64,000 nt of DNA from Candidatus Dojkabacteria bacterium (GCA_026415655.1 JAOAGR010000004.1:43-64042); one strand, 5' to 3'; positions 9,586 to 61,827 are shown, counted from the first letter of the stretch. Numbers and translations are program-made. The notes: a model not told the origin generated them from the letters alone.

Positions 9586-10237
9586 TTATATATTTTTAAG
9601 TTGATTTACTCGAAAGTTTTTATTGGTAAAATAAAATGAAGTTTCCTTGATTATTTCTTGATTTAGTTGATAAAGACCGTTTTCAGTAATTCTCTCGAAT
9701 ATTTTTATATCCCACAAATAAATATTAGAATATTCAGTCTCTTTTCTAACCTGCATAATCAAATAATTGTTATCAAATTCAACAAAATATGGGGGTCTTT
9801 TTGTCATTTGATCGAGTTTGTTTAGAGTATGCATATCAAAAATAAAAATACCACTACTTTCTAAATGACTAGAGACACTTTTAAATGTACCCTCCCATCC
9901 ACTCAAATCTAGTACATGATTAATAGAATCATAAAAACAGTAAATAACACCATATCTTGTATTTATAGGAAAATTTGCCATATCCTGATGATAAAAATTT
10001 ATTTTTGGCATTTTTGCCCTTGCCATAGCAAGCATACTTTCCGATATATCTAATCCTTCAACTTCATAATTATCTTTAATACTCTGTAAAATATTTCCAG
10101 TACCACAGGCTATCTCTAAAATTTTTCTTGCATTAGACTTATATTTATCAATATAATGATTCGATATTTTAGTAAAAAATTGATGATTAGATTCTAAACT
10201 ATCATAAAATCTCTAATAAATAGAATATGGGTCATTT
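9586..10237 (-). pseudogene. Class I SAM-dependent methyltransferase interrupted by in-frame TAG after codon 10 (MTKNDPYSIY*RFYDSLE...ILEIACGTGNIL...)
   Basis: Motif I (ILEIACGTG) lies upstream of the track ORF's ATG (10035) in the same frame; only an in-frame TAG at 10205-10207 separates it from an ATG at 10235-10237; no ATG/GTG/TTG between stop and motif I. Confidence 0.55.
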
Positions 10238-10295
10238 TTAGTCATGGATCAGTTATAACATTTGCAAACTTAAAAAACAAAATTGAATTGATCTT

Positions 10296-10690
10296 AATAA
10301 AAAGATAATATTTTATATCATGAATAGTATCCAGTACAAAGTAATAAAAGCATTCCCGATTATAATGTTTGTAATTATTAACATAATCTTAATAACACTA
10401 GTTTCTATACTAGGTTATTATTACTTTACAAATAATCGACAAACAAATAATCAAAACTTAAGTAAGCCCTCCCCTACTACTACTCCTAGTGAAAATGTAA
10501 TCATTGATAATGATCTAGCCGATGAACTATTTAGAGGAAATAATACGCAAACCGATACACCAACGCCTACATCAACAACAACTCCATCACCAACTCAATC
10601 ACCAAGTTCCAGTCCCTCACTTACAGTCACAAATACCACAATAACCAACACTCCACAACGTCAAACACAGTCCCCACTTCTATCGATAAC
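10296..10690 (+). repeat. Direct repeat copy 1 (about 390 bp, ~95% identical to 18243..18627) covering promoter-proximal region and first ~120 codons of a surface protein gene
   Basis: Near-identical nucleotide runs read at both loci (atatcatgaatagtatcca...caacgtcaaacacagtcccc...cacttctatc). Confidence 0.75.
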
Positions 10691-10934
10691 TTTAACTGAT
10701 CAAAACAAAATCAATGAAATTCAAACAATCCATTTTCCCGACGAAGTAAAATGGACGCACATTGAGAAGCTGGTTAAATCAAGAGCCTATTCATTAGGTT
10801 TTAATGATAAATTCAGTTATTATTCGCAATTAAAAGTTACTCAATGTAATACCTGTCTAGATCGATACAGGTCTTTTAATTGGTCCGATCTAGAAGAGAT
10901 GATAAGAGTCGGTATTTTAAAGAAAGCTTTTTAA
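10320..10934 (+). CDS. Membrane-anchored protein with Pro/Thr/Ser-rich linker (paralog A; shares N-terminus with 18256..19533)
   Basis: N-terminal TM helix, TTTPSENV...PTPTSTTTPSPTQSPSS low-complexity linker, unique 90-aa C-terminus. Confidence 0.5.
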   Translation: MNSIQYKVIKAFPIIMFVIINIILITLVSILGYYYFTNNRQTNNQNLSKPSPTTTPSENVIIDNDLADELFRGNNTQTDTPTPTSTTTPSPTQSPSSSPSLTVTNTTITNTPQRQTQSPLLSITLTDQNKINEIQTIHFPDEVKWTHIEKLVKSRAYSLGFNDKFSYYSQLKVTQCNTCLDRYRSFNWSDLEEMIRVGILKKAF

Positions 10935-11148
10935 TAATCAAATCTTGATTTTATTACAGGGCATCTATTATCTGACTCCTCAATATAAGTTTAGATATTA
11001 CTCAAAATAACACTGACTTAATTATTAAACCTATCCTGCAATCTCAACAAATTTAAAATGCTACAATTATGAACTAGCCAGTAAATCCGAGAATATTTCT
11101 GATTATCCTTCTTATAGAGAATAAATCTCATTGATCGTTCTAGAATGA

Positions 11149-11154
11149 TATAAT
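11149..11154 (+). promoter_or_regulatory. Candidate extended -10 element (TGaTATAAT) upstream of mod gene; weak -35 TTGATC 12 nt upstream
   Basis: Sequence tgatataat 19 nt upstream of ATG 11173; spacing to -35 is suboptimal. Confidence 0.25.
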
Positions 11155-11172
11155 GAAAAATATTATTGTTTT

Positions 11173-14148
11173 ATGACAAAAGAGCAAAAATTTTACCAAG
11201 CATTACAAGATGTATTTATCGGCGCAAAGATTGAAGGCACTGGTGGATTTGTTAATTTAATGAGAATAAAATCAAATTACTACAAAAAGATTGAGGAATT
11301 ACTCAAGAAAGATATTGAAAAAGCATTAGAAAGATATTCATCATTCAGAGATGAACTTTTTGATAAACTTTATTCATTTTTCAGTAGATATTTTACAGAA
11401 AGTGGATCAATATACTTCAATTCTACACCATTTCATAACAACATTTATGAAAAAGTTTATACCGATGATAAAGATGTTATTCTCTTCTGGAAAACACAGA
11501 TGCTTTACTATGTAAAAACCGACAGAATATTTAGAAGCTTAGAGATAGAAAGTGATGGGCATAAGTTTTTCTTTGATGTAAGTAATCTTGAACACAAGAA
11601 AGCAAATGAAAAACGAAGTTTGATATATGAATTAAAAGAAGTAAAAGAAGACAAGACTATTATTCTCAATGTTTATTATTCCGAAAAAGGAAGAGTAACA
11701 AAAACAGAAGATATACTAAAAGAATTGAAAAAGAAACATATAAGCCTAACCGAAGAAGAGTTAGAGAAATCATTTAGGATTTTTGAAAAACAAAGCGAAG
11801 TAGATTTTTTTATCAACAAAAACGCAAAAGCATTTTTACAGGAGCAGTTTAAGTTATGGAGTTATCAGTACTTTTGGGAAGGGGCAAAAGAGTGGAGTGT
11901 AGATAGAGTAAACCAGTTACAGATACTAAAAGACATAGCTTTTAAGATTATAGATTTTATCAGTCAGTTTGAAGATGAGCTAGTAAAGGTATGGAACAAA
12001 CCGAAGTTTGTAAAGAATAGTAATTATGTGATAACACTGGATAGGATAAATAACATAGAATTGATTGAAGAAATATTGAAGCATAAAGGTATAGAAGAAC
12101 AGGTAAAAGAATGGAAAGAGTTAGGAATAGTAGACGAAGATTTCAAGATAGATGATATTTTTGACAATTCCCCTTCTATGAAGGGGTGGCAGGCAGAGCC
12201 TGACGGGGTAGTCAGATGGAATGAATTACCTTTTGATCTTGAACTCAAAGAAACAGCCAAGGAACTGAGAAAAGCCGGTAATTTATCCGAGGTTTTATTA
12301 TGGAATCAAATCAAAAATAAAAAATTTTTAGGCTTGGACTTTGATAGACAAAAAATCATAGGAAATTACATTGTTGATTTTTATTGCAAGGATTTGGGGG
12401 TTGTTATTGAGATTGATGGTGCAAGTCATGATGAGAAAGTCGAATATGACAGAAAAAGAGATAAATATTTAGAAAGTTTGGGGTTAAAGGTAATACATAT
12501 TCTTGATACAGATGTAAAGAATAATCTTCAGGGGGTAATTGAGTTTTTAAAACGCGAAATTAAACACCCCGTCCCTTCGGGACACCCCTCTATTAGAGGG
12601 GAATTTAGTCATCTACCGATAGATACAAAATATTTCAAAGATTTAGAACTGGAAATACTTAGTCAATTTGATGATTTAGACAATGCTTTAGATGGATGGT
12701 TAATAAAAAGTGAGAACTATCAGGCTTTAAATACTATACTGCCAAAGTTTAGGGAAAAAATGCAGACGATTTATATAGATCCGCCGTTTAATTTAGATTC
12801 ATCTGATCAGTTTTTGTATAGGACTAACTACAAAGATGCAAACTGGGCAACACTACTTGAAAACAGGATAAGGATAGCTAGAGAATAGCTAAACGAAAAA
12901 GGAAGCATTTTTGTAAGGTGTGATTATAACGGAAACTGGATTGTAAGACCTCTAATGGATGAGATTTTCGGGGGGGAGAATTTTAGGAATGAGATTGTGA
13001 TTACTCGCGGTATGCAAACCAGAAAAGCAGAGAATAGATTATTAAATAAAACAGACTCGTTATTTTTCTATTTCAAGAATTCGGAGAGTGGGATTTTATA
13101 TATTCTTGAAAGAGAAAAAGAACATGTGAAGCACTACCAAGAAACATTAAGAACTCTCAAGAGATTAATTGATGATGAGATTTATAGAGAAATAGAGAAA
13201 AAATTAAATGAATCCCTTTGGATGCCTTTTCTAAGTATGCCAGGGGAACAAAAAACTAATGGGTATAGACAGATTTTCGGAATTAAGTTAAATCCACCTA
13301 AAGGACGGCACTGGGCTTTTTCACAAGAGAATTTAGATATAGCCGTTAAAGAAGGATTAGCGAGATTAAAATGTTTGAATTGCGGAACGATTATTACAGA
13401 AAATAACCAAATAGAAGACGGAAAATGCAGAGATTGTGGCAGTGAATCTTTTCAAGGAGAAATATTAAGCCTATATAACCAAATAAATAACAATTGGACA
13501 GACATCCCAGGATATGAACAAGACCCCGAATTTCCTACTCGCAACTCCGAAATCCTCCTCAAGCGTGTCATAGAATCCACATCCAACGAAGGCGATTTAG
13601 TTATGGATTTCTTTTTAGGTAGTGGTACCACTACAGCCGTAGCCCATAAACTTGGTAGGAAATGGATAGGAACAGAGATGGGAGAACACTTTTATACTGT
13701 AATTTTACCAAGGATGAAAAAAGTTTTAGCTTATGATAAATCAGGAATATCAAAAGAAAAAGATGTAAAAGAAAAGTACAATGAAAAAAATGCAGGCGGG
13801 TTTTTCAAATACTATGAACTTGAACAATATGAAGAAGCATTAAACAACTGTGTATATGAAGACAGTGATATATTCACTTCATCTAACAAATCACCTTATG
13901 AACAGTATGTATTTTTGAAAGATGAAAAGATGCTAAAAGCTTTAGAGATAGATTATCAAAACAATAAAGTAAAAGTAGATTTAGATAAACTTTATGAAAA
14001 TATTGACATAGCAGAAACCTTATCAAATCTCACAGGAAAATGGATAAAGAAAGTAAGAGAAAATGAAGTGGAATTTGAAGATGGCACAATAATAAACACA
14101 GAAGATTTGGATTATAAATTTATTAAGCCGTTGATTTGGTGGGAATAA
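11173..14148 (+). pseudogene. mod: Type III R-M methyltransferase (Mod, beta-class N6-adenine MTase) interrupted by in-frame TAG at 12886-12888; carries a ~360-aa N-terminal extension and an embedded DUF559 endonuclease-like domain
   Basis: ORFs 11173..12888 and 12955..14148 are in the same frame and the 66 nt between them translate without stop (LNEKGSIFVRCDYNGNWIV); DPPFN motif IV (~12790), FLGSGTT motif I (~13610), order IV-TRD-I; DUF559 signature LLWNQIKNKKFLGLDFDRQKIIGNYIVDFYC...IEIDGASHD at ~12280-12570. Confidence 0.75.
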
Positions 14149-14154
14149 TTTTTT

Positions 14155-15141
14155 ATGAAAAAAGAAAAGTTTAAAAAAGGTGAAATTATTATTTACAAGT
14201 CCAAAGAAGGCCCCAAACTTGAAGTTAGATTTTCTGCTGAAACTGTTTGGCTAAGACAGGAAGAAATAGCAAAGTTATTTGGCAAAGAAAGATCAGTAAT
14301 TACCAAGCATATCAAAAAAATTTTTACCGATAACGAAGTAGATAAAAAAAGCAATGTGCAATTTTTGCACATTCCAAACTCTGATAAGCCAGTTGCATTT
14401 TATAGTCTTGATGTAATTTTAGCAGTAGGTTATCGCACCAATTCTTCAAGAGCCATCCAGTTTAGAAAATGGGCTACTCAGATCTTAAAGAATTATTTGT
14501 TGAGAGGATACGCTCTAGATCAAAAAAAGTTACTCCACACACAAAACGCCTTAAAAGATTTGCAAGAGACTATCACTCTACTACAAGAAAAGTCAAGAGG
14601 CGAATTGCTTGCTGGACAACAGCAAGAAATTTTAAATCTGCTCTCAAACTATGCTAAAACTCTTAGTTTACTCGAACAATACGATAAAGAAAAAATTAAT
14701 CTCATAAAAAAAGCAAAAGACAAGTTTATTTTACAATACGATGAAGTAAAATCAATAATAGAAAATATAAAGAAAGAACTTATTGCCAAAAAAGAAGCAG
14801 GCTATTTATTTGGAAGAGAAAATAATGAAAATCTCAAAGCCATTTTAGGAAATATCTACCAGACATTTGGTGGTAAAGAACTCTATCCAAGTTTAGAAGA
14901 AAAAGCAGCACATCTGTTATATTTTATTATTAAAGATCATCCTTTTGTCGATGGTAATAAAAGAATAGCTTCTTTTTTGTTTATTTATTTTTTAGATAAA
15001 AACAATTATCTGTATAAGCAAAATGGTGAGAGGAAAATCAATGATAATGCTTTGACAACTCTGGCTCTTTTAATTGCAGTAAGCAATTCAAGTGAAAAAG
15101 AAAAAATAATAAAAATTATTACAAATCTAGTGGGTTTATGA
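14155..15141 (+). CDS. RhuM-family N-terminal domain fused to Fic/Doc domain (HPFVDGNKR motif)
   Basis: RhuM signature (EVRFSAETVWLRQEEIAKLFGKERSVITKHIKKIF...VGYRTNSSRAIQFRKWATQILK) and Doc-type motif HPFVDGNKRIASFLF; stop overlaps res start (ATGA). Confidence 0.75.
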   Translation: MKKEKFKKGEIIIYKSKEGPKLEVRFSAETVWLRQEEIAKLFGKERSVITKHIKKIFTDNEVDKKSNVQFLHIPNSDKPVAFYSLDVILAVGYRTNSSRAIQFRKWATQILKNYLLRGYALDQKKLLHTQNALKDLQETITLLQEKSRGELLAGQQQEILNLLSNYAKTLSLLEQYDKEKINLIKKAKDKFILQYDEVKSIIENIKKELIAKKEAGYLFGRENNENLKAILGNIYQTFGGKELYPSLEEKAAHLLYFIIKDHPFVDGNKRIASFLFIYFLDKNNYLYKQNGERKINDNALTTLALLIAVSNSSEKEKIIKIITNLVGL

Positions 15142-18104
15142 AACACTACTTACAAAACATAGTATCAAACCTTGATATTAACAATATTCCAGCGGACTGG
15201 TCGGATATTGATTTTGAAATATTTTCTAAAGATAAAAAACTTTTTGACTATCAACAAAAAGCATTGGAGCATGCGCTGAAATCCTTGTATTTATTTTATC
15301 AGGAAGACAATGGAGATAAATCTAAATTTTATAACAGATTTATTAATAACGGATTAACAGAAGATTTATCTTACAATGTTAAAAAGGAAAGCAAAACCAT
15401 AAAATACCTTTTAGAATACGATAAAGATTATCCTGTAGATAATGAAAAAATTTCATTTAAGCACCTTATAAACCGAATGTCTTTCTGGATGGCAACAGGT
15501 AGTGGTAAAACTCTTGTTATTGTTAAGCTTATCGAATTGCTTGCGTATCTTATCAATCAAAATAAAATACCTAAAAAAAATATTTTATTTTTGACATACA
15601 GAGAAGATCTAATTGAACAATTTAAAAATCATCTTGAAGAGTTTAATTCAGTTAATTCTGATAGCTTTATTAGTCTTATAAATCTGAAAGACTATTCTTC
15701 AAGAAAGCAAAATCCAACATTAAGTTTTGGCAATAGTATTGATATTTTTTATTATAGAAGTGATTTAATTTCAGATGAACAAAAAGATAAAATTGTAAAT
15801 TTTAAAAATTACGAAAATAACGGTAACTGGTATATTATCCTGGATGAAGCACACAAAGGCGACAGAGAAGATAGCAAAAGGCAGATATTCTATTCAATTT
15901 TAAGTAGGAATGGATTTTTGTTTAATTTTTCAGCGACATTCACAGATGAAAGAGATTTTGTAACCTGTGTTTATAATTTCAATCTATCAAAGTTTATCGA
16001 AGAAGGCTATGGTAAACATATTTACATTTCCAAACAAAGTGTAAATGCTTTAGAACAGAGAAATACAATAATTGATAACGAAAAACAGAAGATACTACTT
16101 AAATTATTTATTCTTCAATCTGCGATAAACAAACAATTTGAGGAAATACGAAAAGTAATTGGAAATCTTTATCATAAACCACTGTTGCTTACACTTGTAA
16201 ATTCTGTAAATACTGAAGATTCCGATCTTGAGTTATTTTTTAAGGAGATAGAAAAAATTGCAAGCAACAATATTGATAAAAGTATTTTTGAAGAAGCCAA
16301 AAACAATCTTTTACAGGAATTAGAAAGTAAAGATGCAAAATATGAATTTGAAGACATCCGCATTGACACTTCCATTCGCAATTCTATCAAACAAATACAA
16401 CCATCAGATTTGTTAAGGTATATTCTAAACTCCGCAAAACAGGGAAAAATTGAAGTAATAAAACTACCTTCAAACAAACAGGAATTGATTTTCAAACTTG
16501 CTACATCTGACCAACCATTCGCTTTGATGAAGATAGGCGATATAACCGAGTGGATAAAAAATAAACTCTCTCATTACGAAATAATAGAACGTTTTGAAAA
16601 CGAAAGTATTTTCAAAAATATCAATACAAATGAAGACATCAATATATTGATGGGGTCACGGGCTTTTTATGAGGGCTGGGATAGTAATAGGCCAAATCTT
16701 ATTTTGTTTATAAATATTGGAAAAGGAACGGATGCAAAAAAATTTGTACTTCAATCCATAGGTCGTGGAGTCAGAATTGAACCTTTGCCAAATAAAAGAA
16801 AGAGGTTGGTAAATCTATACAACAATAATGAAGTAGATGAAAGTCTTTATAATATAGTAAAAAATAATATTTTAGGACTTGAGACTTTATTTGTTTTTGG
16901 GACAAAAGCAGAAAACTTAAAAGAAGTTATTGAAACACTTAAACAGGAAAAAACAGAAGTTTTACTTGGTGATTTGTTTGAGATTAATCCAGATGTGTTA
17001 GATAAAGAACTGTTAATTCCACAATATAAAAAATCAAATAATTTGATTATAGAAGAAAAAGAAGTGATACAGTTTCCAATTAATGAAAATGATTTTGACG
17101 AAGTTTCAGACTATTTTAATTATATAGGCGATAAAGTTGCATTATGTAAATATGATTGCAATATCAAAGTTTTATCAAAGCTTAAAGAAGCATTTAATGG
17201 AAAAAAACAAAATTACTTTTTAATAAGTAATGATGAGTCAAAAGTTGGAAAACCAGAGGTGTTACTTTCGTTGATATTTAAACACTTTTCAAATGTTACA
17301 GAGGAATTTTCTAATTTCAAAAAGTTAAAAGAAGAGATCATCCACTTTAAGAGAATTCAAATTACACAAGACAAACTAAATTCTTTAAGAGAAAAGATTG
17401 AAAAGGTTAAGAGAGCAAAAGATAAAGATAAAATTGAAAAAGAACTTGATGAAAAATTTGACAAAGGTGAAGTTTCAAAAGAACAATACAAGCAACAAAT
17501 TAAAGAAATCGAATCAAATATAGTCAAAGAAGCAGAAACTCAATATAACACAAACGAGAAAATTAAAATAAAACTTTTACAAAACCATTATTACATACCT
17601 CTGGCTTTATCTGAAAGCGAAACAGCTGATTACATACAACATGTAATTAAACATAAAGGTGAAATTGATTTTCTAAACGAACTTGAAAACTACTTAAATC
17701 AAAACAACAATTTATTTAAACAATTTGACTGGTGGTATTTTTCTAAAATTGATGAAACACTGGATAACGTTTACATTCCTTATTACAATCCGAAAACAAA
17801 TAGAATAGATAGATTTAAGCCTGATTTTATCTTCTGGTTAAAAAAGGATAATAACTATACAATCTTATTTGTTGATCCAAAAGGAACAGAGCATACTGAT
17901 GGATATAGAAAAATTGATGGTTTTTCAAGGATTTTTGAGGAAAAAGTCAATGGACACGAACAAAATAGAAATTTTGCATATAACGGATTCACATTAACTG
18001 TAAAACTATTATTAAAAACTAGATCAGGGATAGGAAGTGTTTTGAATAAGTACAAAAAATACTGGTTTGATAACTTTGTTGATTTTTCGAATAAAATTAA
18101 GTAA
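15138..18104 (+). CDS. res: Type III restriction enzyme Res subunit (SF2 helicase + PD-(D/E)xK nuclease)
   Basis: Walker A MATGSGKT, DEAH box ILDEAHKG, motif VI QSIGRGVRI, C-terminal KPDF...VDPKG nuclease motif; 988 aa. Confidence 0.8.
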   Translation: MKHYLQNIVSNLDINNIPADWSDIDFEIFSKDKKLFDYQQKALEHALKSLYLFYQEDNGDKSKFYNRFINNGLTEDLSYNVKKESKTIKYLLEYDKDYPVDNEKISFKHLINRMSFWMATGSGKTLVIVKLIELLAYLINQNKIPKKNILFLTYREDLIEQFKNHLEEFNSVNSDSFISLINLKDYSSRKQNPTLSFGNSIDIFYYRSDLISDEQKDKIVNFKNYENNGNWYIILDEAHKGDREDSKRQIFYSILSRNGFLFNFSATFTDERDFVTCVYNFNLSKFIEEGYGKHIYISKQSVNALEQRNTIIDNEKQKILLKLFILQSAINKQFEEIRKVIGNLYHKPLLLTLVNSVNTEDSDLELFFKEIEKIASNNIDKSIFEEAKNNLLQELESKDAKYEFEDIRIDTSIRNSIKQIQPSDLLRYILNSAKQGKIEVIKLPSNKQELIFKLATSDQPFALMKIGDITEWIKNKLSHYEIIERFENESIFKNINTNEDINILMGSRAFYEGWDSNRPNLILFINIGKGTDAKKFVLQSIGRGVRIEPLPNKRKRLVNLYNNNEVDESLYNIVKNNILGLETLFVFGTKAENLKEVIETLKQEKTEVLLGDLFEINPDVLDKELLIPQYKKSNNLIIEEKEVIQFPINENDFDEVSDYFNYIGDKVALCKYDCNIKVLSKLKEAFNGKKQNYFLISNDESKVGKPEVLLSLIFKHFSNVTEEFSNFKKLKEEIIHFKRIQITQDKLNSLREKIEKVKRAKDKDKIEKELDEKFDKGEVSKEQYKQQIKEIESNIVKEAETQYNTNEKIKIKLLQNHYYIPLALSESETADYIQHVIKHKGEIDFLNELENYLNQNNNLFKQFDWWYFSKIDETLDNVYIPYYNPKTNRIDRFKPDFIFWLKKDNNYTILFVDPKGTEHTDGYRKIDGFSRIFEEKVNGHEQNRNFAYNGFTLTVKLLLKTRSGIGSVLNKYKKYWFDNFVDFSNKIK

Positions 18105-18242
18105 TAAAATTTTAGAAAATAAAAAAATGAGGTAACACTTAGAGTCTAGAATATTAAAATTCATCTGAATAGATGATTTTTCATAAAACTATAATTTGTT
18201 TATTAAAATACAACAAATATTGAATTAACCGTAATAAAAACA

Positions 18243-18627
18243 TAATATTTATATCATGAATAGTATCCAATACAAAGTAATAAAAGCATTCCCGATTATG
18301 ATGTTTGTAATTATTAACATAATCTTAATAACACTTGTTTCTATACTAGGTTATTATTACTTTACAAATAATCGACAAACAAATAATCAAAACTTAAGTA
18401 AGCCCTCCCTTACTACTACTCCTAGTGAAAATGTAATCATTGATAATGATCTAGTCGATGAATTATTTAGAGAAAATAGTACGCAAACCGATACACCAAC
18501 GCCTACATCAACAACATCTCCATCACCAACTCAATCACCAAGTTCCGGTCCCTCACCTACTGTCACAAATACCACAATAACCAGCACTCCACAACGTCAA
18601 ACACAGTCCCCCACTTCTATCCCGACA
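18243..18627 (+). repeat. Direct repeat copy 2 (partner of 10296..10690)
   Basis: See copy 1. Confidence 0.75.
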
Positions 18628-19533: not shown

Positions 19534-19561
19534 AACTTAAAATTCTTGCTAACATTCAAAT

Positions 19562-20662
19562 ATGATAGTAGAAAATCAAGTTGAGCTAGAAAAAACACAA
19601 ACTAATCAGGCCGAAACTAATCCAGCTGATACCAATTTGAATAATAATTCAAAGAATAATCTTCAAAAAAATACCAATGTAATATTAATTATATCTGCTG
19701 CAACTTTAATATTTCTTATTATCTTTTTTACTTTATTCTTAACAAATAAACAAAAGCAAAACGCTTATGGTTCAAATACAGAGTCAGAAACTACATCCGA
19801 AGTGAGAAATCCCGAAACTGATGATTCGTCCAATAATACTCAAGTTGAAAATTCAAATAGCGATACAGAAGAAAACTCCAATCAATCCGATCAGTCTAAT
19901 AATCAAAATACTCAAGTAAGAACACCTAGACCCCAAAATGACTTTTTATTTTATAGAGACAATATAAACGGACGTGTTCTGGGACATCCAAAAGATTGGA
20001 CAGTAAATGTATCTAATGATTATAAAGTAACATCTATTTCAAAGGATCAAAATAAAGTTATAGTTCAAAGAAAAAGAGAAACCCAAGTCCTTGCTAGTGT
20101 ACGTAGTGCAAATCCTGTAAAAACTATTCACTCTCCTGATTCTACAATACAGATATATTCAAATGGAAATAAATACACAAGCATCGTAAAGATACGAAAC
20201 GACCAGAAAATCAAAAATCCCTACGTTACAACTTCAGAATATGAGGCTCTATCAAACCAACAGACCAGCGATAGCATAAATTTACTTTCTGACATATCCA
20301 CTTCATTATCAAATGAACTATCAACCTACAATATAACTTACGGAAATAGAACCTATACCTTGAGATATCCCGCAAATACATGGGAACTTTTTAAAGAAAA
20401 CGACGAAATAAAACTTAGAAATAAAAACAATTTAGATATAACATTAAGTGTAAGAATAAAATCAAAATATAGCGGTGGAGGATATTGCTACGAAATATTA
20501 GAAAAGGAATCAAACACTATAAATAGTAGTATCAATTTTAAAGTTTTTCAAGGTAAAAAATCAGAAGATGGTCCTTGTGTAGAGATGTTATCAGCAGATG
20601 CCAAAAAGTATTTGATATATGCAACCGTAGACTTAACAAATGAAACAGTTTTAGAAATATAA
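19562..20662 (+). CDS. Membrane-anchored S/T/N-rich protein of unknown function
   Basis: N-terminal TM, low-complexity acidic/Ser-rich linker, C-terminal domain with GGGYCYE...C motif; ends TAA. Confidence 0.4.
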   Translation: MIVENQVELEKTQTNQAETNPADTNLNNNSKNNLQKNTNVILIISAATLIFLIIFFTLFLTNKQKQNAYGSNTESETTSEVRNPETDDSSNNTQVENSNSDTEENSNQSDQSNNQNTQVRTPRPQNDFLFYRDNINGRVLGHPKDWTVNVSNDYKVTSISKDQNKVIVQRKRETQVLASVRSANPVKTIHSPDSTIQIYSNGNKYTSIVKIRNDQKIKNPYVTTSEYEALSNQQTSDSINLLSDISTSLSNELSTYNITYGNRTYTLRYPANTWELFKENDEIKLRNKNNLDITLSVRIKSKYSGGGYCYEILEKESNTINSSINFKVFQGKKSEDGPCVEMLSADAKKYLIYATVDLTNETVLEI

Positions 20663-21205
20663 GGAGCAACAAATAATCCAAATTTAAATGAGATTCAGGA
20701 AGCTCTCATTTTTGATATTATATGTAATTTTGAGTTTGAAAAATATGTTGAATTAGAATTAGTTTCACCTCATCAAGCAACAGGTAAACCCGAATATTCG
20801 ATTTATTATCCTTCTAATAAATGGGAATACACTTTCAACCAAGGTCTATACAGATTTACGAGGAAAGATAATCCATCTTTTTCTTTCACCATGGAACCAG
20901 GATTCGTCCACACGGGAGGATATTATTGTTATGAATTCGATACAGCTAATCAAATAGAGAAATCACTCAACGGATTTACGACAATTTATACAAAAGCCCA
21001 ACGAATTAATCAACCGACAGAATTGTGTGATCAAAATTCTATTAGTTCATCAGAAAAATATATGTTTTTAATCGCTATATATGTAAGTGAGTTTGAACTT
21101 TATAAATTAACCTATTTTTCAGACAATAATAACTTGGATGAAGCTTCACAGATAATTTATGGCGAAATATTATCTAATTTTACTATAGATTTAGAAAGAA
21201 ATTAA
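20663..21205 (+). CDS. Second copy of the C-terminal domain of the preceding gene, in frame directly after its TAA (no in-frame ATG until 20891)
   Basis: Translation from 20663 in the same frame is open and repeats the motif order (YPSNKWEYTF...GGYYCYEF...C...KYMFLIAIY) of residues ~240-366 of the upstream ORF. Confidence 0.3.
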   Translation, partial: GATNNPNLNEIQEALIFDIICNFEFEKYVELELVSPHQATGKPEYSIYYPSNKWEYTFNQGLYRFTRKDNPSFSFTMEPGFVHTGGYYCYEFDTANQIEKSLNGFTTIYTKAQRINQPTELCDQNSISSSEKYMFLIAIYVSEFELYKLTYFSDNNNLDEASQIIYGEILSNFTIDLERN

Positions 21206-22910: not shown

Positions 22911-24536
22911 TTATAATTCTTGCAATTCCTTACAAACAAAATAATTGTCTTTTATATAGGATAAAACAAAGTAGATAAAAGCACATATAGCAATGAATAA
23001 CATAATACTTATTTGTTCTAATGATAAAATATTAAACGATTCTAAAAATTTCGTATTTTCATAAGAATAATTATCAAAAAAAACATAAAGTTGATTCAGA
23101 AAAAATAAAATATGAATTATAGAAATAATTAAAACTATAAAGGCGAATCTGAATTTATCTAACAATCTAGAATTTTTATATAAAGCAAAGGAAAATATAG
23201 TCATTGGTATTAAGGCATAAATCAAATATCGCGAATGCATTTTTGTAGATGTATACAAGAAAAATATTAAATAGACAAAGTAGATTAACATAATTAAATA
23301 CTTTCTCTTGGGATGTGGTGATTTGACCAGTTTATAGACAACATATGCCAATGGTAAAAAGATGATCGCATTGATAACATAAAATAGAATTTTTACATTT
23401 ACACCCAAAATAAAAGCATCAGAAGTAGGCATTTCCGAGATAAATCCAAATATAAGCCAAAAATTGGCAGCATACATAGAAACAACATCATCTTTAGTAA
23501 GAAAACCTAATATGTTATTTGCATAAAGTGTTAAATTTATATTTAAAAAAATATTCAATATACTGATTATCCCAATAAATAAACCTGAGGAAAATTGTAT
23601 AGATCCGTTTTTTAAATTATATAAATAAATGATCAAAACTATACTTAAAAGGTAAACGATCAAAGACAAAGATTGCAGATTTAAATAATTAAAGAGTACC
23701 ATTAAACCTATTAAGAAAATAAACAGTATCCATATAAATATGTTCTTTTTAATCAATATTTGATTAAAGTCCCTATTTAATATGTAAAAAATAATTGGAA
23801 GATAGATAAGAACATGCACTTTAAAATTCAACAAAACGGCAAATACAATGCCCCAAAGAAAATACTCCCAATCATTCATTTCGCCTAAAATTCTATTAAA
23901 TAAAGTAAGAATAACTAGCATTATCAAAACATCTAATTGCCCCCACATAACACTAATGCTCCATATTGAGGGGAGCACAAAAAACAATGAGGATATAAAG
24001 ATTTTTAATGGTATTGATTTTATGCCTATCCTATTTAGTAATTTATAAACTACTAAAATCAATAACAAATCGCTAATTCAATTGATAAACTTAAGTGTAA
24101 GTACGAATCCTAACTGTGGCTCAAGGTTAAATAAATTAGTAATTGGTTTAGATAAAATGTATACCAAGTAAATATAACCGACACTAGCTGGTAGATAATC
24201 AAAATAATCTATTTCATAATTTTTAGACAAATCTTCAAAATATTGCCAAAACGGTATATATCCATTTTCATCTATGATTTTGGCCCAATTATACATCGTA
24301 TAGACTGTGTCAAAATAAAAACCATAGTTATAAATAGTCTTTATTCTAAAATATAATCCTAAAACAAAGATCAAAATAACACAGAAATAAAATAAAAATT
24401 TTTTACTAAAAATATACTTTATCACAATCGATATTATAAAATACTTGTAAATATACAAATGAAAAATAAAAAAATAGCGAATTATAAATGCTCTAATTGT
24501 GGCGCTAGATATATAGCATGGCAAGGTCAGTGTCAA
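22911..24536 (-). pseudogene. GT-C type integral-membrane glycosyltransferase-like protein split by in-frame TGA (24078-24080)
   Basis: ORFs 24078..24536 and 22911..24068 share a frame with only 3 sense codons (ISD) between them; combined ~540 aa polytopic protein. Confidence 0.45.
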
Positions 24537-25776: not shown

Positions 25777-25867
25777 GGAGAGATGACCGAGTGGTTTAAG
25801 GTGCCGCTCTCGAAAAGCGGTGTGCTCTTTTTGGGCACCGTGGGTTCGAATCCCACTCTCTCCGCCA
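25777..25867 (+). tRNA. tRNA-Ser (anticodon CGA) with long variable arm
   Basis: Acceptor GGAGAGA/TCTCTCC, anticodon stem CCGCT/AGCGG loop CTCGAAA, long extra arm GTGCTC..GGGCAC, T-arm GTGGG-TTCGAAT-CCCAC, CCA encoded. Confidence 0.85.
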
Positions 25868-26070
25868 AATAAAAAAAGAGCCCGCTGGCCCGCTAGCCGA
25901 TTTTGACCGCAAAATTGAATTTTCTATCTTTGTCCTGCAAAGCAGGAAGCCAGAAACGGGTTTTTCATTCTTTTATTTTCTTTGCTTGTTTTTAACATTT
26001 ATTTGGTATCATTATACTGAAAGTAAGAGTAGTTAACGTTACAACAATATACTATCAAATTATTGAAAAT

Positions 26071-26277
26071 ATGGTAAAAGAAAATATAATTGGAGAAAAT
26101 ATAAAGAAATACTCCACAAAACAAGGTTTGTCACAGGAAAATTTTGCTAAAAAAGCCGGCGTCAAATATACTACTTTAACCAAAATTGAAAGCGGAGTTA
26201 TCAAAAACCCTCTGTTTTGGTAATAGCTAAAATTGCCAAGGCATTAGGAGTTCATCTTGAGGAGTTAATAAAATAAA
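26071..26277 (+). pseudogene. XRE-family HTH controller (C-protein-like) gene with -1 frameshift in a poly-A/C tract near 26207-26215
   Basis: Frame A gives ...LSQENFAKKAGVKYTTLTKIESGVIKNPLFW*; the +1 frame continues the expected HTH C-terminus SVLVIAKIAKALGVHLEELIK* and ends 4 nt before the restriction enzyme ATG. Confidence 0.5.
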
Positions 26278-26280: not shown

Positions 26281-27162
26281 ATGCAAACACTTTGGAATCA
26301 AAATCAAGAAAAGGATTTCTTTATTAAATCTTTAGAGTTCGCAAGCCCGGAACAACTTTTTTATATCACAAAAGATAAAAGATACTTAGCTTATTGGCCT
26401 AAAAATTATGATGGTGCAAAAACAACATTACAGAGCAGAAACTCCTTAATCGGTTCTTATACGGAAAAATGGGCCACTGATTTATTTAGCGAAATAGCAA
26501 AGATGGTCGGTGGCTACGCTGTGCAAGGAGTAATCGCCGAAGAAATAGGATTAACTAATCAATCGCCGGCAGATGTTGCTATTTGTAAAACAAAGAATGT
26601 TATCCAAAAACCAGAAAATATTTTAATGATCATTGAAGTTAAAATGTCCGTAGTTTGGAATTGGGAGTTTTCGCCAAAAAACAAAAATTTAGTTTGCATT
26701 GGTGACTATAAAACCCATCAAGGTAACCCTGGACTTTTGCGGTCAGACACAATTCTAAAAGCCATTGGCAAAAGTATCAATATTCGTGTTTCAAGTTTTG
26801 CCGCTTCGAAAATTCCGATTATTATTGTTGGCAATACGCCAATTACAAAAAGCTATTATGAAAAAGTAGATCACTTAAAAAGAAACGGAATCATACAAGG
26901 TTTTTGGTCAATAAATCCAAAGCCACTGGACAATAACGGAGAAAACATTAAATCAACGTCCTTTGAAGGATTTTACAGATTTGACGGATACGAAGAATTA
27001 AAACAACACGCCATCAATCTTTTGAAAGAAGAAAGAGAATTTTTCTCTAGCATGCAGACACGAAAAAAACTGGGAAAAATTATTGAGATAGCAAACAAAG
27101 AAGCTACTTATGAAGCAAAGGCGCAAAAATTCTTGGTATTGTTACGTCAATCAAAAGAATAA
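26281..27162 (+). CDS. Putative type II restriction endonuclease (PD-(D/E)xK candidate: PADVAI...MIIEVK)
   Basis: Position between C-protein gene and DNA MTase; candidate catalytic motif; no other family signature recognized. Confidence 0.45.
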   Translation: MQTLWNQNQEKDFFIKSLEFASPEQLFYITKDKRYLAYWPKNYDGAKTTLQSRNSLIGSYTEKWATDLFSEIAKMVGGYAVQGVIAEEIGLTNQSPADVAICKTKNVIQKPENILMIIEVKMSVVWNWEFSPKNKNLVCIGDYKTHQGNPGLLRSDTILKAIGKSINIRVSSFAASKIPIIIVGNTPITKSYYEKVDHLKRNGIIQGFWSINPKPLDNNGENIKSTSFEGFYRFDGYEELKQHAINLLKEEREFFSSMQTRKKLGKIIEIANKEATYEAKAQKFLVLLRQSKE

Positions 27163-27171: not shown

Positions 27172-28116
27172 ATGAGCAATCAAAGTTTCTACAATAAAAG
27201 AAGAGAAGGAACAAAAACCAGTGCTTTTGGCACGCCGGGCAGAATTAACCATGACTCGTCAAAATTTTATAACAGCAAACTTTATGAGGGATTGAATAAT
27301 GGAAAAAATGTTGAGTATGTGGAAAATCAAATTGATCCTCAAAATATAAATAAAGTTTTTTGTAAAAGTAGCGAAGCTATGTCAGAACTTCCGGACAATA
27401 GTGTTCACTTAATGGTTACTTCGCCGCCCTACAATGTGGGTAAAGAATATGACGAAAACTTATCTCTCAAAGAATATAGGGATTTATTAAAACGAGTATT
27501 CAAAGAGACGTATAGAGTTTTGGTTCCTGGCGGTAGGGCATGTATAAATGTTGCTAATCTCGGGAGAAAACCCTATTTACCCCTCCACAGCTATATCATT
27601 GAGGATATGCATAATATTGGTTTTTTAATGAGGGGTGAGATTCTTTGGGATAAAGGAAGTAGCGCTAGCCCTTCTACTGCTTGGGGAAGTTACCTAAAAG
27701 CAAATAATCCGGTATTGCGAGATATTCATGAGTATATTCTTGTTTTTTGCAAAGATACATTCACCAGATTAAACCCACACAAGAGGAAAAGCACTATCTC
27801 AAAAGAAGAATTTTTGGAATTTACAAAAAGCATTTGGAAATTCGCCGCAGAGCGAGCCTCAAAAGTAGGACACCCCGCACCTTTTCCCATTGAACTACCT
27901 TATCGCTTAATTCAACTTTACACTTTTGAGGGCGATGTCGTTTTAGATCCATTTGTTGGAAGCGGAACAACTTGCATCGCTGCGTTAAAAACCAACAGAA
28001 AATATGTTGCTTATGACATTGATAAAAAGTACTGCGATTTGGCAGAACGGAGAATAAAGCAATTTTTACAGAAACAAACAACACTTTTTTCAAAAGAATT
28101 TGCCGCCAAAGAGTAA
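27172..28116 (+). CDS. DNA methyltransferase, beta-class N4-cytosine/N6-adenine (motif IV TSPPYN before motif I DPFVGSGTT)
   Basis: SPPY catalytic motif at aa ~85, FxGxG SAM motif near C-terminus; typical of PvuII/BamHI-like type II MTases. Confidence 0.8.
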   Translation: MSNQSFYNKRREGTKTSAFGTPGRINHDSSKFYNSKLYEGLNNGKNVEYVENQIDPQNINKVFCKSSEAMSELPDNSVHLMVTSPPYNVGKEYDENLSLKEYRDLLKRVFKETYRVLVPGGRACINVANLGRKPYLPLHSYIIEDMHNIGFLMRGEILWDKGSSASPSTAWGSYLKANNPVLRDIHEYILVFCKDTFTRLNPHKRKSTISKEEFLEFTKSIWKFAAERASKVGHPAPFPIELPYRLIQLYTFEGDVVLDPFVGSGTTCIAALKTNRKYVAYDIDKKYCDLAERRIKQFLQKQTTLFSKEFAAKE

Positions 28117-29842: not shown

Positions 29843-30955
29843 ATGATGACAGGATGTAGAAAAATATATGAAATCACAGTATATTCTTTAGGTACTCTTA
29901 TCGTGTTGTTTCTGTTGTTTGTAGTAATTATATTTTTATCTTGGTCTGAAAACAAAACAGATCTTTCTAATATTGCAAAAGATGCAATAACTATACCATC
30001 CAATAAAATAACCGAAGATGCTAGTTTAAAAGGTCAACTTGTGTCTATTACTGGTGTAGCAAAAACCGATGAACTAATAGGAGATGGTCTTTATCTTAAA
30101 CCTGGTAAATACATTGCCGTAAGAAGAAAAGTTGAAATGTATGCATGGCATACTAAAAGAGGTACATTTGCTAGCTTATCATGGAAAGAAAATCCTAAAA
30201 AATATCCAGCAATTGGATACGAAAATCCTCCGAAAACTATTGAAAGCACAGTTAATTTTGTCACATTAGCTACTATTGGAAAATACAAATTTTTCCCTGA
30301 ACAAGCTATTCTTCCTGAATTTACTCGACTGAAATTAAATAAAGATATCTTAGATCTCGATGATAATGCGGTGATGATAAATGAAGATTATATTTTTGTT
30401 AAAAATAATCCAGATAGCACACCAGAAAATCCAAAACTCGGTGATCTGAGAATCAGCTATTATGTCTTATACTCTGATTTTCTTCAAGGAACATTACTTG
30501 GCGCTCTTTACGATGATCTAATCAGTCAATATATTGACGAACAAGGAAATATAATATATAGGTTATCTAATTCCGAAGAAGATCCTGTAGAAAAATATCA
30601 TGAAGAATTTTCTTTTGAATTATGGTTAAGTAGATTTATTCTATTTTGCGTTACTACATTAGCTTTAGGAATGGGAATATCAATCTATTTTTATTTTGTC
30701 GATTTATTAAACATTGACAGTAGTTATGCGGACAAAAGTTGGCTCAAAGTTTTGATTGTAGCTATATCATCTATGATTCTCATGGCTTTCGGTATTTATA
30801 TTGTAAGAAATATCTCAAATATCCTAACAATAATACTAATGTTCATATCGTCTGGATTATTTGTAATATTCGCAGATGCCATTGCACTTAAATTTATCAA
30901 TAAGCTAACATCAAAACATCGTAGCAAAACCAAGAAAATATCACCTCAAAATTAA
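29843..30955 (+). CDS. Membrane protein, TMEM43/DUF1625-like architecture (1 N-terminal TM, large loop domain, 3 C-terminal TMs); paralog 1
   Basis: Topology and conserved blocks shared with next ORF (DGLYLKPGKYIAVRRKVEMYAW...GDLRISYYVLY). Confidence 0.35.
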   Translation: MMTGCRKIYEITVYSLGTLIVLFLLFVVIIFLSWSENKTDLSNIAKDAITIPSNKITEDASLKGQLVSITGVAKTDELIGDGLYLKPGKYIAVRRKVEMYAWHTKRGTFASLSWKENPKKYPAIGYENPPKTIESTVNFVTLATIGKYKFFPEQAILPEFTRLKLNKDILDLDDNAVMINEDYIFVKNNPDSTPENPKLGDLRISYYVLYSDFLQGTLLGALYDDLISQYIDEQGNIIYRLSNSEEDPVEKYHEEFSFELWLSRFILFCVTTLALGMGISIYFYFVDLLNIDSSYADKSWLKVLIVAISSMILMAFGIYIVRNISNILTIILMFISSGLFVIFADAIALKFINKLTSKHRSKTKKISPQN

Positions 30956-32254: not shown

Positions 32255-32894
32255 TGTTATAAAACATCAATATACAATAATTCCAGAACAACAAAAATAA
32301 TACCAATTATCTTTTCAATAAAAAAAATAATTTCATGTATCTTAAAAAACTTAATATGGATGGAAATATAAAAGAGTGCAATGTCTTTCAGGTATTCTCA
32401 TTCTTACCATCACTGGATTGAGAAATATATCTAAAGAGACTTTATGATAACTCTGTAGCAGTTAACGTAGGTATGGTAGTTGGTTTATTCAAAATTGGTC
32501 ATAATTATTTTTGATTTTTTGTAAAAACGATCTTAGATAGAATTGATCAATACTTTTTAGGCATTCGTAGTAAAACAAAATTATCAAAAAGTATAAGAAA
32601 ATTTAGAAATTGGGATAAATTTGTAACTGCCACCATCCAATCTACCAAATTGAATGATCACAACGATAAATATAACAATACATTCTAAACTCTTTCATCA
32701 AAAGAAAAAAGCTATTTATCTAATGTATCAATCTATCAATAAGACTTTTATAATGTATATCTTAAATTCATTTTATACAAAAATTTTTCGTAACTAAAAA
32801 TTAAACTTGCGAAGATTTAATATAACAGAAGTAAAAATTTTGACATACTTCCCTACTTTAACTACAATCTAATAATTCAAAATAAACCAAAATC

Positions 32895-36537: not shown

Positions 36538-37092
36538 TTATTTATTTTCATTATCTAAATAAGACATAGATCCAGTTACTCCTCTTTGTCCTTGATATTT
36601 TCCCCTATATGGTTTGAGAGCATCTGTAGTCATCTTTGCTATCACTATTTGACAAATTCTCATATTAGGATAGATCTTAATGGGCACTGTATTTGCATTG
36701 TATAGTTCCAAAGTGATATTTCCCTCAAAACCTGCATCTACCCACCCGGCATTTTCAATAAATAAGCCTAATCTACCAAGAGATGAACGTCCCTCGACAA
36801 ACCCTGTAAGATAGTTTGGTAATCTAATATATTCGACAGTTGTTGCTAGGACAAAAGTTTTAGGTTGTAAAATATAACCTTTATCATCAATAAGTATTTT
36901 CTCTACTTTATCTGTATAATTTTTATCTTTTACATCAATTACATCTATTCGATAATTGGTATAAGCCAATACCTCATGGCCCAATCTCAGGTCAACAGAA
37001 GAGGGTTGGATCTGCAAATCTCTTTCGATTGGATCAATTAACAATTCATTATTATCTAATAATTCAATAATAGTTTTATCACTTAATATCAT
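36538..37092 (-). CDS. dcd: dCTP deaminase
   Basis: MILSDKTIIELL...SVDLRLG and dUTPase-like fold motifs; 184 aa. Confidence 0.85.
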   Translation of the reverse strand: MILSDKTIIELLDNNELLIDPIERDLQIQPSSVDLRLGHEVLAYTNYRIDVIDVKDKNYTDKVEKILIDDKGYILQPKTFVLATTVEYIRLPNYLTGFVEGRSSLGRLGLFIENAGWVDAGFEGNITLELYNANTVPIKIYPNMRICQIVIAKMTTDALKPYRGKYQGQRGVTGSMSYLDNENK

Positions 37093-59762: not shown

Positions 59763-59844
59763 TTGTATAATATATCAAATAAACTATAAAGATGCCTCAT
59801 AAATTTTTTAGATTTGGTATTGATATGGTATCATTAGATACGTA

Positions 59845-59921
59845 CGGGGAGTAGTTCAGTTGGCTAGAACGCTTGGTTTGGGACCAAGAGGTCGGAGGTT
59901 CAAGTCCTCTCTCCCCGACCA
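59845..59921 (+). tRNA. tRNA-Pro (anticodon TGG)
   Basis: Acceptor CGGGGAG/CTCCCCG, anticodon stem CTTGG/CCAAG loop TTTGGGA, T-arm GGAGG-TTCAAGT-CCTCT, CCA encoded. Confidence 0.85.
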
Positions 59922-59934
59922 AGACTTGTATGTT

Positions 59935-61827
59935 TCAGAAAACAATCTTTATATCTTCCTTGTAATTTTGTAATGTGGCATTTAAGCTTGCTGTCCAACC
60001 GTCTATAAACACTTTACCTCTTTTAATACATTCAGCAAATTGTTCTTTACTTACCTTATCACTATTGGTTATATAGTAATTATCCCCAACTTTGTAAACG
60101 CAATCTTTTACAACTTCTTCGGGTGTTTGTGTTGGTTCGTCTAATCCTACAGTGAAAATCATGTTGTAGATACGACTTAAAGGATCAAGATTGATTTCGG
60201 GATACTTTATTTTTCCGTCTTCTGCTAATTCTAATCTTGGAGCGTCTACGGTATCAAATACCTTGAAACCAATATCAGGTGTTTTCTTTTTATTTTCATC
60301 AAAAAAGCCTTCTTTGTTATTCTCTTCTTCAATTTCTTTTTTAATCTTTTCTCCCGCCCTTTTTAATCTTTCAATAGTGATGCTTGAGATAACTGGCGGT
60401 AGATTGTTTTCTATACAAAACTGATAAGCTGGTTTATCTTCTTTTATTGGCTCATCTATTTGTACAAGTATAAATTTTCTATTGCACTCATCTTCGGCAT
60501 TTAATCTCATCACTGCTTCACCTGTTGTGCCACTGCCTGCGAAAAAGTCAAGGACGAGGTCAGAAGAGGAAGTCGAAATTTCAACAAGAAATTTAATATA
60601 TTCTTTAGGTTTAGAATAGTTAAAAACAGGATACCCAAATAATTCGTCTATATACTTATTTGATTGCGTCGTAGAATATTTAGAAATTACCCCCAAAGGT
60701 TTGATTGATCTTGGTTTAATATTGCCATCACTATCACAATTTAAGTATTGTTTTGTATATACCGCCCAATTATTATTTTTGTCTTTTTTTATTACTACAA
60801 AACCATTTTTTATTCCCCATTCTAATTTTTCTTTACTCCATCTCCAACGAGAAATTTTTTCATTATTTTTATTAGGAATAATTTTAGTTCCATCCGGTGC
60901 TTCAATTGGATAATCTAGAGATTCAACATAACCCAAACTAGCACTATCCAATTTAATAAGTTGATATTTTCCTCTTTCCTTTTCATATTCATCGCTTAAT
61001 TTATACCTTTCTACATCCTCAACACTCAAACCAGAAATTTCAAATTTTTCTTTATTCTTTGCATAAACTAAAAGATATTCATGCTTAATCCTAAAGTGTT
61101 TACTATCAGAGCTACCTCCACCTTATTTATTTTCCCATACTAATTTCGCCACAAAATTTTCTTCCCCAAAAATCTCATCACAAAGTAATTTCAAGTTTGC
61201 TTGCTCATTATCATCAATACTAATAAAAATCACTCCATCATCGCTGAGTAAATCTCGTGCTAATAAAAGTCGTGGATACATAAATGCAAGCCAGCCGCTA
61301 TGGCTTTTCTTCGTCTTAAAAGTAAACACCATCCTTGCAAAATCATCATCGCTTAGATTAGCAAGTCCCAACACTTCAGATTCTTCTTTATCAAATTTAT
61401 CAGGATAAACAAAGTCGTCATTGCCAGTATTGTATGGCGGATCTATGTATATGCATTTTATCTTTCCACTGTAATAATTTTTGAGTATTTTCAGACAATC
61501 TAGATTATCCCCTTTTAATACAAGATTTTGAGTTGTGTCAAAATTTTTACTCATTTCTGTATTTACTTTTAATTCTTTATTTGTCTTTTGTGCATACCTT
61601 GCTCTCGCTACATTCCTGCCAACAAAATTTAACCCATATCCATTTACTTTTTCATCGACAGGCAAGCCTACTGCTGTTTTTAGTTCTTGTACATTGATTT
61701 CGTTATCTTTAATAATATTTGGATAATGTTCTTTCAAAAACTTGATAAGCTTATTTTCTTCTTTATCATTATCTGAGCTTAATACTGTGAATCCTGCATT
61801 AATAAATTCTTGTATTGTTTTATCCAT
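59935..61827 (-). pseudogene. mod: Type III R-M methyltransferase (Mod) interrupted by in-frame TAA (61123-61125)
   Basis: ORFs 61123..61827 (DPPYN motif IV) and 59935..61029 (DFFAGSGTT motif I) share a frame; the 93 nt between translate GGGSSDSKHFRIKHEYLLVYAKNKEKFEISG with no stop and align with EcoP15I-like Mod core (HEYIYVYAKN). Confidence 0.75.

Follow-up and report, generated by a model that had tools for sequence, protein, structure and literature searches.

The stretch of DNA analyzed here (64,000 nt; GCA_026415655.1 JAOAGR010000004.1:43-64042; referred to below as the window) has a G+C content of ~30% and comes from an uncultivated bacterium of the Candidate Phyla Radiation (CPR)/Patescibacteria; the NCBI label of the source metagenome-assembled genome (MAG) is Candidatus Dojkabacteria. 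Our subject is a set of interrupted genes within it: a class-I S-adenosylmethionine (SAM) methyltransferase, the modification genes mod1 and mod2 of two type III restriction-modification (R-M) systems, a putative controller gene at a third R-M locus, a surface protein, and a polytopic membrane protein. A preliminary description had reported six disrupted genes in these 64 kb. All six lesions are present in the sequence, homology crosses each of them, and they comprise five single-base nonsense substitutions and one single-base deletion. A mechanical scan of the window for long open reading frame (ORF) pairs in the same frame revealed no further genes split by a single stop; the in-frame ORF pairs ilvD/MBL, R293/M314, and pfkB/o314/fba were considered as split genes and rejected, being separate genes of different families.

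The window was compared base by base with all recorded contigs that encode exact copies of neighboring proteins. Contigs 99.8 to 100% identical to the window are found in ENA assembly ERZ3623746 and in Logan assemblies of several runs, and these serve as near-identical strains; coverage of the related ENA contigs is only ~4x. Contigs L001 and L011 belong to ERZ3623746, L005 to run SRR6344962, L012 to SRR27730017, and L018 to SRR34265295. The assemblies represent distinct haplotypes: each differs from the window by 1 to 17 single-nucleotide polymorphisms (SNPs), and there are in addition a 1.9-kb indel beside a tRNA-Asn gene and another Mod2 allele. The L005 contig, 99.97% identical to the window, derives from a sample of the Zavarzin hot spring, Uzon Caldera, Kamchatka (PMC8468003). 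As a more distant reference we used a sister genome, L007, which is the closest genome in the GTDB species set, is labeled "uncultured Candidatus Saccharibacteria," and encodes a RadA protein 78% identical to that of the window. An exact-pattern scan of Joint Genome Institute metagenomes for the Mod1 lesion context, with the middle base left free, gave no match, and the species is therefore absent from that collection; exact-protein look-ups of the membrane-protein fragments and of the Mod1 N-terminal fragment likewise returned nothing.

The first lesion lies next to the gene for tRNA-Asn(GTT) (9445 to 9520, plus strand), with the methyltransferase and the Mod1 island directly downstream. The methyltransferase gene (9586 to 10245, minus strand; Pfam Methyltransf_25 and related domains) is a pseudogene that has both an in-frame TAG and a lost C terminus. 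The TAG had been placed at 10205; it does exist, but its true position is 10213 to 10215, ~8 nt away. At codon 11, the stop precedes the SAM-binding motif, beyond which the first subsequent ATG, GTG, or TTG is found. Homologs align both upstream ("M..DPYSIY") and downstream ("RFYDSL...EIACGTGN") of the stop, where the residue is Ser in L007 and S, G, or A in other homologs. The same TAG recurs in L001 (ERZ3623746) and L024 (SRR27730047). The second lesion, a 3' deletion, was overlooked in the earlier account: the conserved C terminus ("...RIFFVCKRK"), kept in L001 and L007, has been removed from the window by a deletion of ~1.9 kb that begins just after tRNA-Asn and has its breakpoint at ~9634. 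When window positions 9521 to 9634 are set against L001 positions 3267 to 5479, ERZ3623746 is ~1.9 kb longer between tRNA-Asn and the methyltransferase, and its extra DNA holds ORFs of 275 and 264 aa without a family match along with the conserved 3' end of the methyltransferase gene. Since L007 has homologs of the 275-aa and 264-aa ORFs, the difference is a deletion in the window strain. The L007 methyltransferase ortholog contains two frameshifts and directly adjoins the surface protein gene surfA.

The block that follows is bracketed by direct repeats of ~410 nt. The left copy (10276 to 10684, plus strand) is a duplicated 5' end of surfA and forms the N terminus of a 204-aa ORF, surf204; the right copy (18212 to 18621, plus strand) is the true surfA 5' end. 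The copies are 95 to 97% identical (300 nt align ungapped at 97%) and enclose a 7.9-kb block in the order surf204-mod1-RhuM/Fic-res1. The sister genome L007 has one repeat copy and lacks the block. The left copy in L001 differs from that of the window by nine SNPs, all of which convert it to the surfA version, which therefore points to gene conversion between surf204 and surfA.

Within this block, mod1 (11173 to 14148, plus strand) comprises 991 codons and is interrupted by an in-frame TAG at 12886 to 12888. Homology had been said to continue past the stop, and it does: the Pfam N6_N4_Mtase domain (residues 531 to 843) spans the stop at residue 572, and the two halves are contiguous on the PADLOC MTase_III model PDLC03638. 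The TAG replaces a conserved Trp, present in 10 of 11 homologs (TGG>TAG), and recurs in ERZ3623746 (L001) and also in L023. In the public record, the N-terminal 571 aa of Mod1 are named "endonuclease domain-containing protein," and the protein carries an inserted DUF559 (Vsr-like) endonuclease domain at 12244 to 12558, Mod1 residues ~358 to 462. The insertion is flanked by the linkers "SPSMKGWQ..." and "HPVPSGHPSIRGEF"; it is found in about half of the best Mod1 homologs, from many phyla, other homologs are without it, and short linkers of the "TPL.EG" type occur at other positions of Mod1 homologs. The TGG>TAG change also creates a perfect 7-nt direct repeat, ATAGCTA-gaga-ATAGCTA (12874 to 12891), which may reflect chance or a templated mutation. 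In five Logan assemblies (L002 to L006), the contigs all begin within 160 nt of each other in the 3' part of mod1 (window ~13714 to 13874); these shared starts suggest a branch in the assembly graph produced by Mod1 alleles that coexist and diverge upstream of this point.

The two other genes of the block are intact. The RhuM/Fic-domain gene between mod1 and res1 (14155 to 15141, plus strand) matches the PADLOC candidate defense family PDC-S23 (E value, 9e-114); at a prophage-like homologous locus (L019), Mod adjoins Res with no RhuM/Fic gene between them. Res1 (15138 to 18104, plus strand; 988 aa) is a helicase-nuclease with the Pfam domains ResIII/DEAD/SWI2_SNF2, and a homolog of 985 aa lies beside the Mod homolog P0001.

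The second type III system is at the far end of the window, where the gene for tRNA-Pro(TGG) (59845 to 59921, plus strand) directly abuts the 3' end of mod2 (59935 to 61827, minus strand; 630 codons). Here too the reported continuity of homology across the stop, a TAA at 61123 to 61125, is borne out: N6_N4_Mtase covers residues 123 to 461 and spans the stop at residue 235, a position occupied by Glu in the closest homologs. The TAA recurs in ERZ3623746 and SRR27730049 (contigs L016 and L017). As in type III systems generally, a beta-class N6/N4 methyltransferase (MTase) with a central target-recognition domain (TRD) is adjacent to a Res helicase-nuclease; res2 (61830 to 64000, minus strand; REase_III, NCBIfam PRK15483) is intact and runs beyond the window. 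An additional lesion in res2 was considered and rejected, as the 710-aa ORF with a GTG start reflects the window edge and Res2 has 967 aa in L016. At the same Res2-Mod2 locus in SRR34265295, contig L018 has a Mod2 allele of 644 aa that is intact and differs in its TRD. Window positions 59935 to 61145 were compared with L018 positions 10684 to 11977; identity is 99.6% up to 61145, which lies 20 nt upstream of the TAA lesion and marks the onset of divergence; a central stretch of ~600 nt cannot be aligned, and the last 660 nt are 93.5% identical. Given this intact allele, R-M has been lost in some strains only and not across the lineage.

Phase-variable type III mod genes (phasevarions) are known from Haemophilus, Neisseria, and Helicobacter, and the present loci resemble them in that Mod is off while Res is intact and in that strain alleles differ in the central TRD (Mod2 versus L018). 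Phase variation was nevertheless rejected as an explanation: Tandem Repeats Finder detected no tract in 11173 to 14148 or 59935 to 61827, and the OFF states, unlike those of phasevarions, result from substitutions (TGG>TAG and GAA>TAA) that are not readily reversible.

The third R-M locus starts just downstream of the gene for tRNA-Ser(CGA) (25777 to 25867, plus strand), and is organized as a putative controller-restriction-methylation (C-R-M) unit. A small gene for an XRE-type helix-turn-helix (HTH) protein (26071 to 26276, plus strand), a 293-aa ORF (26281 to 27162, plus strand), and a type II N6/N4 DNA methyltransferase gene (27172 to 28116, plus strand; MTase_II; 314 aa) follow one another in the same orientation, with a 4-nt gap between the first two. 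The HTH gene lacks one base at ~26208 to 26213, close to the ~26210 originally given for this frameshift, and ends prematurely at a TAA at 26221 to 26223. Repair of the frame yields a 68-residue protein in which HTH_3 covers residues 11 to 66 and which aligns with SinR, C.BclI, and C.AhdI through the "NPS" motif. The deletion is identical in ERZ3623746, SRR27730017, SRR34265295, and SRR27730049 (contigs L011 to L014). The methyltransferase is intact in all assemblies; the 293-aa ORF, presumed to encode the restriction endonuclease, is intact in the window and has no family match, and in L011 (ERZ3623746) it has acquired an additional frameshift through a 1-nt deletion.

The arrangement recalls C-controlled type II R-M systems such as C.AhdI, C.BclI, C.PvuII, and C.Esp1396I, in which a small XRE-type HTH gene lies upstream of, and is co-oriented with, R and M, and in which loss of C is expected to silence R and not M. 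It differs from them in several respects. The repaired HTH protein matches C.BclI (E value, 7e-5) and C.AhdI (E value, 5.5e-3), but its best PDB matches are SinR-type regulators; a C-box inverted repeat was not found upstream of the HTH gene, in 25940 to 26090; and the presumed nuclease matched no family. The whole block is missing from L007 although the synteny of radA and tRNA-Ser is kept there, synteny ending at the tRNA. Immediately after tRNA-Ser, at the start of the island, there is a G+C-rich stretch, gagcccgctggcccgctagccg (25868 to 25900), made up of 2.5 copies of the unit AGCCCGCT. Neither a matching repeat at the opposite end of the C-R-M island nor, as an att-like island border, a partial tRNA repeat of at least 14 nt was detected.

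The two remaining lesions affect a surface-protein gene and a membrane-protein gene. The surfB gene (19562 to 21205, plus strand; 547 codons) encodes a membrane/surface protein with two internal repeats, and its TAA at 20660 to 20662 falls between them; L007 aligns straight through this position, with a Glu codon (GAA) in place of the stop. The TAA recurs in ERZ3623746, SRR34265295, and SRR27730049 (contigs L011, L002, and L022, respectively). The polytopic membrane protein (22911 to 24425, minus strand; 504 codons) has a TGA at 24078 to 24080, codon 116, across which both L007 and the sister strains align. This stop is private to the window: ERZ3623746, SRR34265295, and SRR27730049 (L011, L002, and L022) read TTA (Leu), and L007 has Phe. 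An intact 504-aa protein is encoded by L011 and L020 (ERZ3623746) and by L022 (SRR27730049), while L002 has a 2-bp deletion of its own at 23617 to 23618. The gene had been called a GT-C glycosyltransferase, a label that we could not sustain, as neither the protein nor its homologs have a Pfam or NCBIfam match. A full-library phmmer search of 1.84 billion representative proteins retrieved no more than four relatives, and the AlphaFold model, with a pLDDT of 47.7, is too poor for a fold search.

The distribution of these lesions is uneven. Some 24 kb of core genes show no lesion and encode full-length domains; these include ilvD, miaB, infB, rny, pyrD, ilvA, and radA and further thyX, dcd, fba, rmlABCD, an M32 peptidase gene, and dnaN. 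Lesions occur only in accessory genes, i.e., the three R-M systems beside tRNA genes, surface proteins, the orphan methyltransferase, and the membrane protein. Private lesions of the sister strains fall in the same classes, namely the membrane protein, surfA (a 1-nt deletion in L011, ERZ3623746), the putative R gene, and a TMEM43-like gene (GAA>TAA in L012, SRR27730017). The same division is apparent in L007, where the aligned codons contain no lesions in 2,363 core-like codons versus ~12 in 1,343 accessory codons. In that genome, the methyltransferase, surfA, surfB, and two TMEM43-like genes (2320 to 2929, 3788 to 6718, and 14715 to 17256) each have several stops or frameshifts, and ilvA, ridA, radA, the M20 peptidase gene, the epimerase gene, and the membrane protein gene are free of lesions. 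The comparison with sister genomes that the preliminary description had called for thus yielded lesions shared across haplotypes, private lesions added to them, and an intact Mod2 allele in one strain.

Long-term constraint was assessed from the ratio of nonsynonymous to synonymous substitution rates (dN/dS) relative to L007, which is 0.03 to 0.07 for core genes and ~0.2 for disrupted or surface genes, with synonymous sites saturated. Low dN/dS together with one lesion per gene indicates that purifying selection acted on the genes through almost the whole period of divergence and that the lesions are therefore young. Among near-identical strains, the 47 coding SNPs comprise 37 nonsynonymous, 8 synonymous, and 2 nonsense changes (expectation without selection, 74, 20, and 5.5%), and the corresponding polymorphism ratio (pN/pS) is ~1.2, a spectrum close to neutral. 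A ratio close to 1 is what the time lag of purifying selection usually produces when strains are near identical; assembly errors have possibly inflated it here.

We consider it likely that the six disruptions are ordinary recent loss-of-function mutations in dispensable accessory genes, and that they reflect turnover of such genes, not recoding, error, or genome-wide decay. The picture is one of strain-level gain, loss, and replacement of defense and surface genes. Each of the three R-M loci abuts a tRNA gene (Asn, Ser, and Pro), and the best Mod homologs come from other phyla, one of them from a prophage-like contig; the G+C contents of R-M genes and core genes do not differ. Judged from this sequence context, the R-M loci are variable islands, probably acquired horizontally. 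Many prokaryotic pseudogenes are failed horizontal transfers, and pseudogenes concentrate in acquired genes (Liu et al. 2004, PMC522871). The present cases resemble that class in consisting of single nonsense or frameshift mutations in otherwise intact, accessory, island-borne ORFs and in being strain specific and young, with one lesion per gene and low long-term dN/dS. They differ in that the host is an uncultivated CPR bacterium represented by metagenomes only and in that the evidence for foreign origin comes from tRNA adjacency, absence from L007, and foreign matches, not from composition.

In the sequence of events we propose, the five shared lesions would predate the split of the sampled haplotypes. 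Loss of Mod1 and Mod2 would abolish methylation as well as restriction, since Res relies on Mod to recognize its target, and would leave Res1 (988 aa) and Res2 (967 aa) as inert ORFs. If the HTH protein acts as a controller, a version without its last helix would be expected not to activate the nuclease gene, with the methyltransferase still active. The strain is thus predicted to be restriction negative yet viable, and acquired defense and surface genes would turn over under weak short-term selection. The preliminary description had noted that every R-M system is hit in its specificity or control gene, which agrees with what we find: the lesions lie in Mod or the putative controller, and Res1, Res2, the putative R, and M are intact. 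Its proposal that restriction is inactivated without killing the host also agrees with our prediction, as unmethylated DNA would face no active nuclease. The "safe gene" pattern holds as a description, but its statistical weight is slight (a rough post hoc P value of ~0.04), since a lesion anywhere in a type III system is harmless.

Several points weigh against this interpretation or limit its reach. The TGA of the membrane protein is private to the window and is possibly a rare variant or a consensus error, and several private lesions of the sister strains, which come from ~4x or unitig assemblies, could be errors as well. The independence of the assemblies is deduced from their sequence differences and not from sample metadata. 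The controller role of the HTH gene is proposed from position and weak similarity only, its C-box palindrome being undetected, and the 293-aa ORF is without any nuclease family match. Finally, there may be residual expression through readthrough or fragment complementation.

It is also possible, though unlikely, that the knockouts were positively selected, with R-M loss favored for DNA uptake or for surviving the acquisition of a toxic system, loss or variation of surface proteins favored for phage escape or host switching, and the repertoire renewed by recombination. All three R-M systems are inactivated, an outcome whose joint chance, by a rough post hoc estimate that takes the window's background lesion density as its basis, is ~0.01; this hints that R-M genes are preferentially lost. 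In keeping with such selection, the membrane protein was disrupted independently in two strains and is intact elsewhere, sister strains and L007 have separate lesions in the same surface-protein families, the intact Mod2 of SRR34265295 has a swapped TRD and diverges 20 nt upstream of the lesion, and surf204 and surfA have undergone gene conversion. Against it stand the small numbers and the post hoc nature of the tests, a SNP spectrum that is as neutrality predicts, the possibility that some private lesions are assembly errors, and the lack of simple-sequence repeats or invertible elements that would make switching reversible. A more specific form of this idea, which we regard as rather doubtful, is that defense and surface genes make up a point-mutational contingency repertoire in which knockouts recurring in the membrane protein, surfA/surfB, the TMEM43-like genes, the R-M components, and the methyltransferase are repaired or changed by recombination and are selected in an arms race with phage or host, as opposed to passive decay; in a weaker variant, some of the "dead" genes may be expressed at a low level by readthrough.

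General reductive decay, of the type seen in recently host-restricted symbionts with pseudogenes everywhere, appears improbable. Disruption of 6 of ~46 genes, the numerous stops and frameshifts that L007 carries in four or five orthologs, and the strain-level pN/pS of ~1 would fit such a process, as would the small genomes of CPR bacteria, which are thought to be episymbionts. However, decay of this kind should leave lesions across all gene classes and relaxed selection, and in the window and the loci examined the lesions of both lineages are confined to surface, defense, and orphan genes and long-term dN/dS is low. Repeated copies of mobile elements were also not noticed in the window, although no systematic search was made. 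The suggestion of ongoing genome decay in a host-associated lifestyle was therefore not upheld, given intact core genes, low dN/dS, and the presence of a near-identical contig in a hot spring run.

Consensus errors of sequencing or assembly are a very improbable source of the stops and the frameshift, although they too had been suggested at the outset. The window does come from a MAG, the related ENA contigs have low coverage, the membrane-protein TGA is unique to the window (TTA in L002, L011, and L022), and the strain differences, which are unfiltered, have an error-like spectrum with a pN/pS of ~1.2. However, five of the six lesions (the methyltransferase TAG, the Mod1 TAG, the surfB TAA, the HTH 1-nt deletion, and the Mod2 TAA) are identical base for base in ERZ3623746, Logan SRR34265295, and the SRR277300xx runs, which differ from the window by SNPs, the 1.9-kb indel, and the Mod2 allele. 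Since these five lesions are shared by independent assemblies of distinct haplotypes, they are real mutations. In addition, the ~24 kb of core genes are free of lesions, and the NCBI-deposited proteins P0053 and P0121 are truncated identically.

The genetic code provides a further check on the view that these are ordinary loss-of-function mutations. In Gracilibacteria and Absconditabacteria, UGA is read as Gly (genetic code 25), and in-frame stops in conserved genes of a CPR genome are reminiscent of such reassignment. Decoding of the stops, whether by reassignment, programmed readthrough, or frameshifting, would leave the genes functional and would account for the single lesion in each otherwise intact-looking gene; moreover, two of the contexts, TAG-C and TGA-A, do not rank as the strongest terminators. 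In the window, however, three different stops are involved and all are genuine terminators, as the preliminary description had maintained: among 45 gene ends, TAA is used 31 times, TGA 10 times, and TAG 4 times. The TAG-terminated genes include ilvD, rmlB, and dnaN, and the Pfam domains of RmlB and DnaN are complete. The ancestral codons, each one step from a stop, do not specify a consistent amino acid: TAG derives from Trp (Mod1) and from Ser (methyltransferase), TAA from Glu in both cases, and TGA from Leu (TTA), the last still polymorphic between strains. Core genes in the window have no internal stops. The window and flanking loci encode only tRNA-Asn, tRNA-Ser, tRNA-Pro, and tRNA-Gly, with no suppressor tRNA found among them, and the sequences around the stops have no context in common. 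With the methyltransferase also missing its C terminus and the putative R gene further eroded in L011, these behave as dead genes do. Because each of the three stops ends ordinary genes and lesions are lacking in core genes, recoding is rejected, in line with the earlier judgment that a global change is unlikely, and decoding of any kind is scarcely credible.

Recent loss of function in accessory genes is a phenomenon of a well-known kind, and it poses no new mechanism or question; what is mildly unusual is the combination of parallel strain-specific lesions in the same surface and defense genes with recombinational replacement of a dead Mod2 allele. The window offers a small, clean example of fast turnover of defense and surface genes against a strongly constrained core in an uncultivated lineage of the episymbiont type. 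For annotation, the six ORFs merit marking as pseudogenes, as public records name their fragments as ordinary proteins. The strain is predicted to be restriction negative despite three R-M loci, and counts of R-M genes in MAGs would accordingly overestimate active defense.

Two intergenic gaps, 32254 to 32895 and 35828 to 36538, contain no recognizable gene remnant and no Rfam RNA. In the TMEM43-like gene at 29843 to 30955, contig L013 differs from the window by six SNPs within 520 nt (30153 to 30672), all of them nonsynonymous; recombination with a neighboring paralog or diversifying selection is a possible explanation for this cluster.

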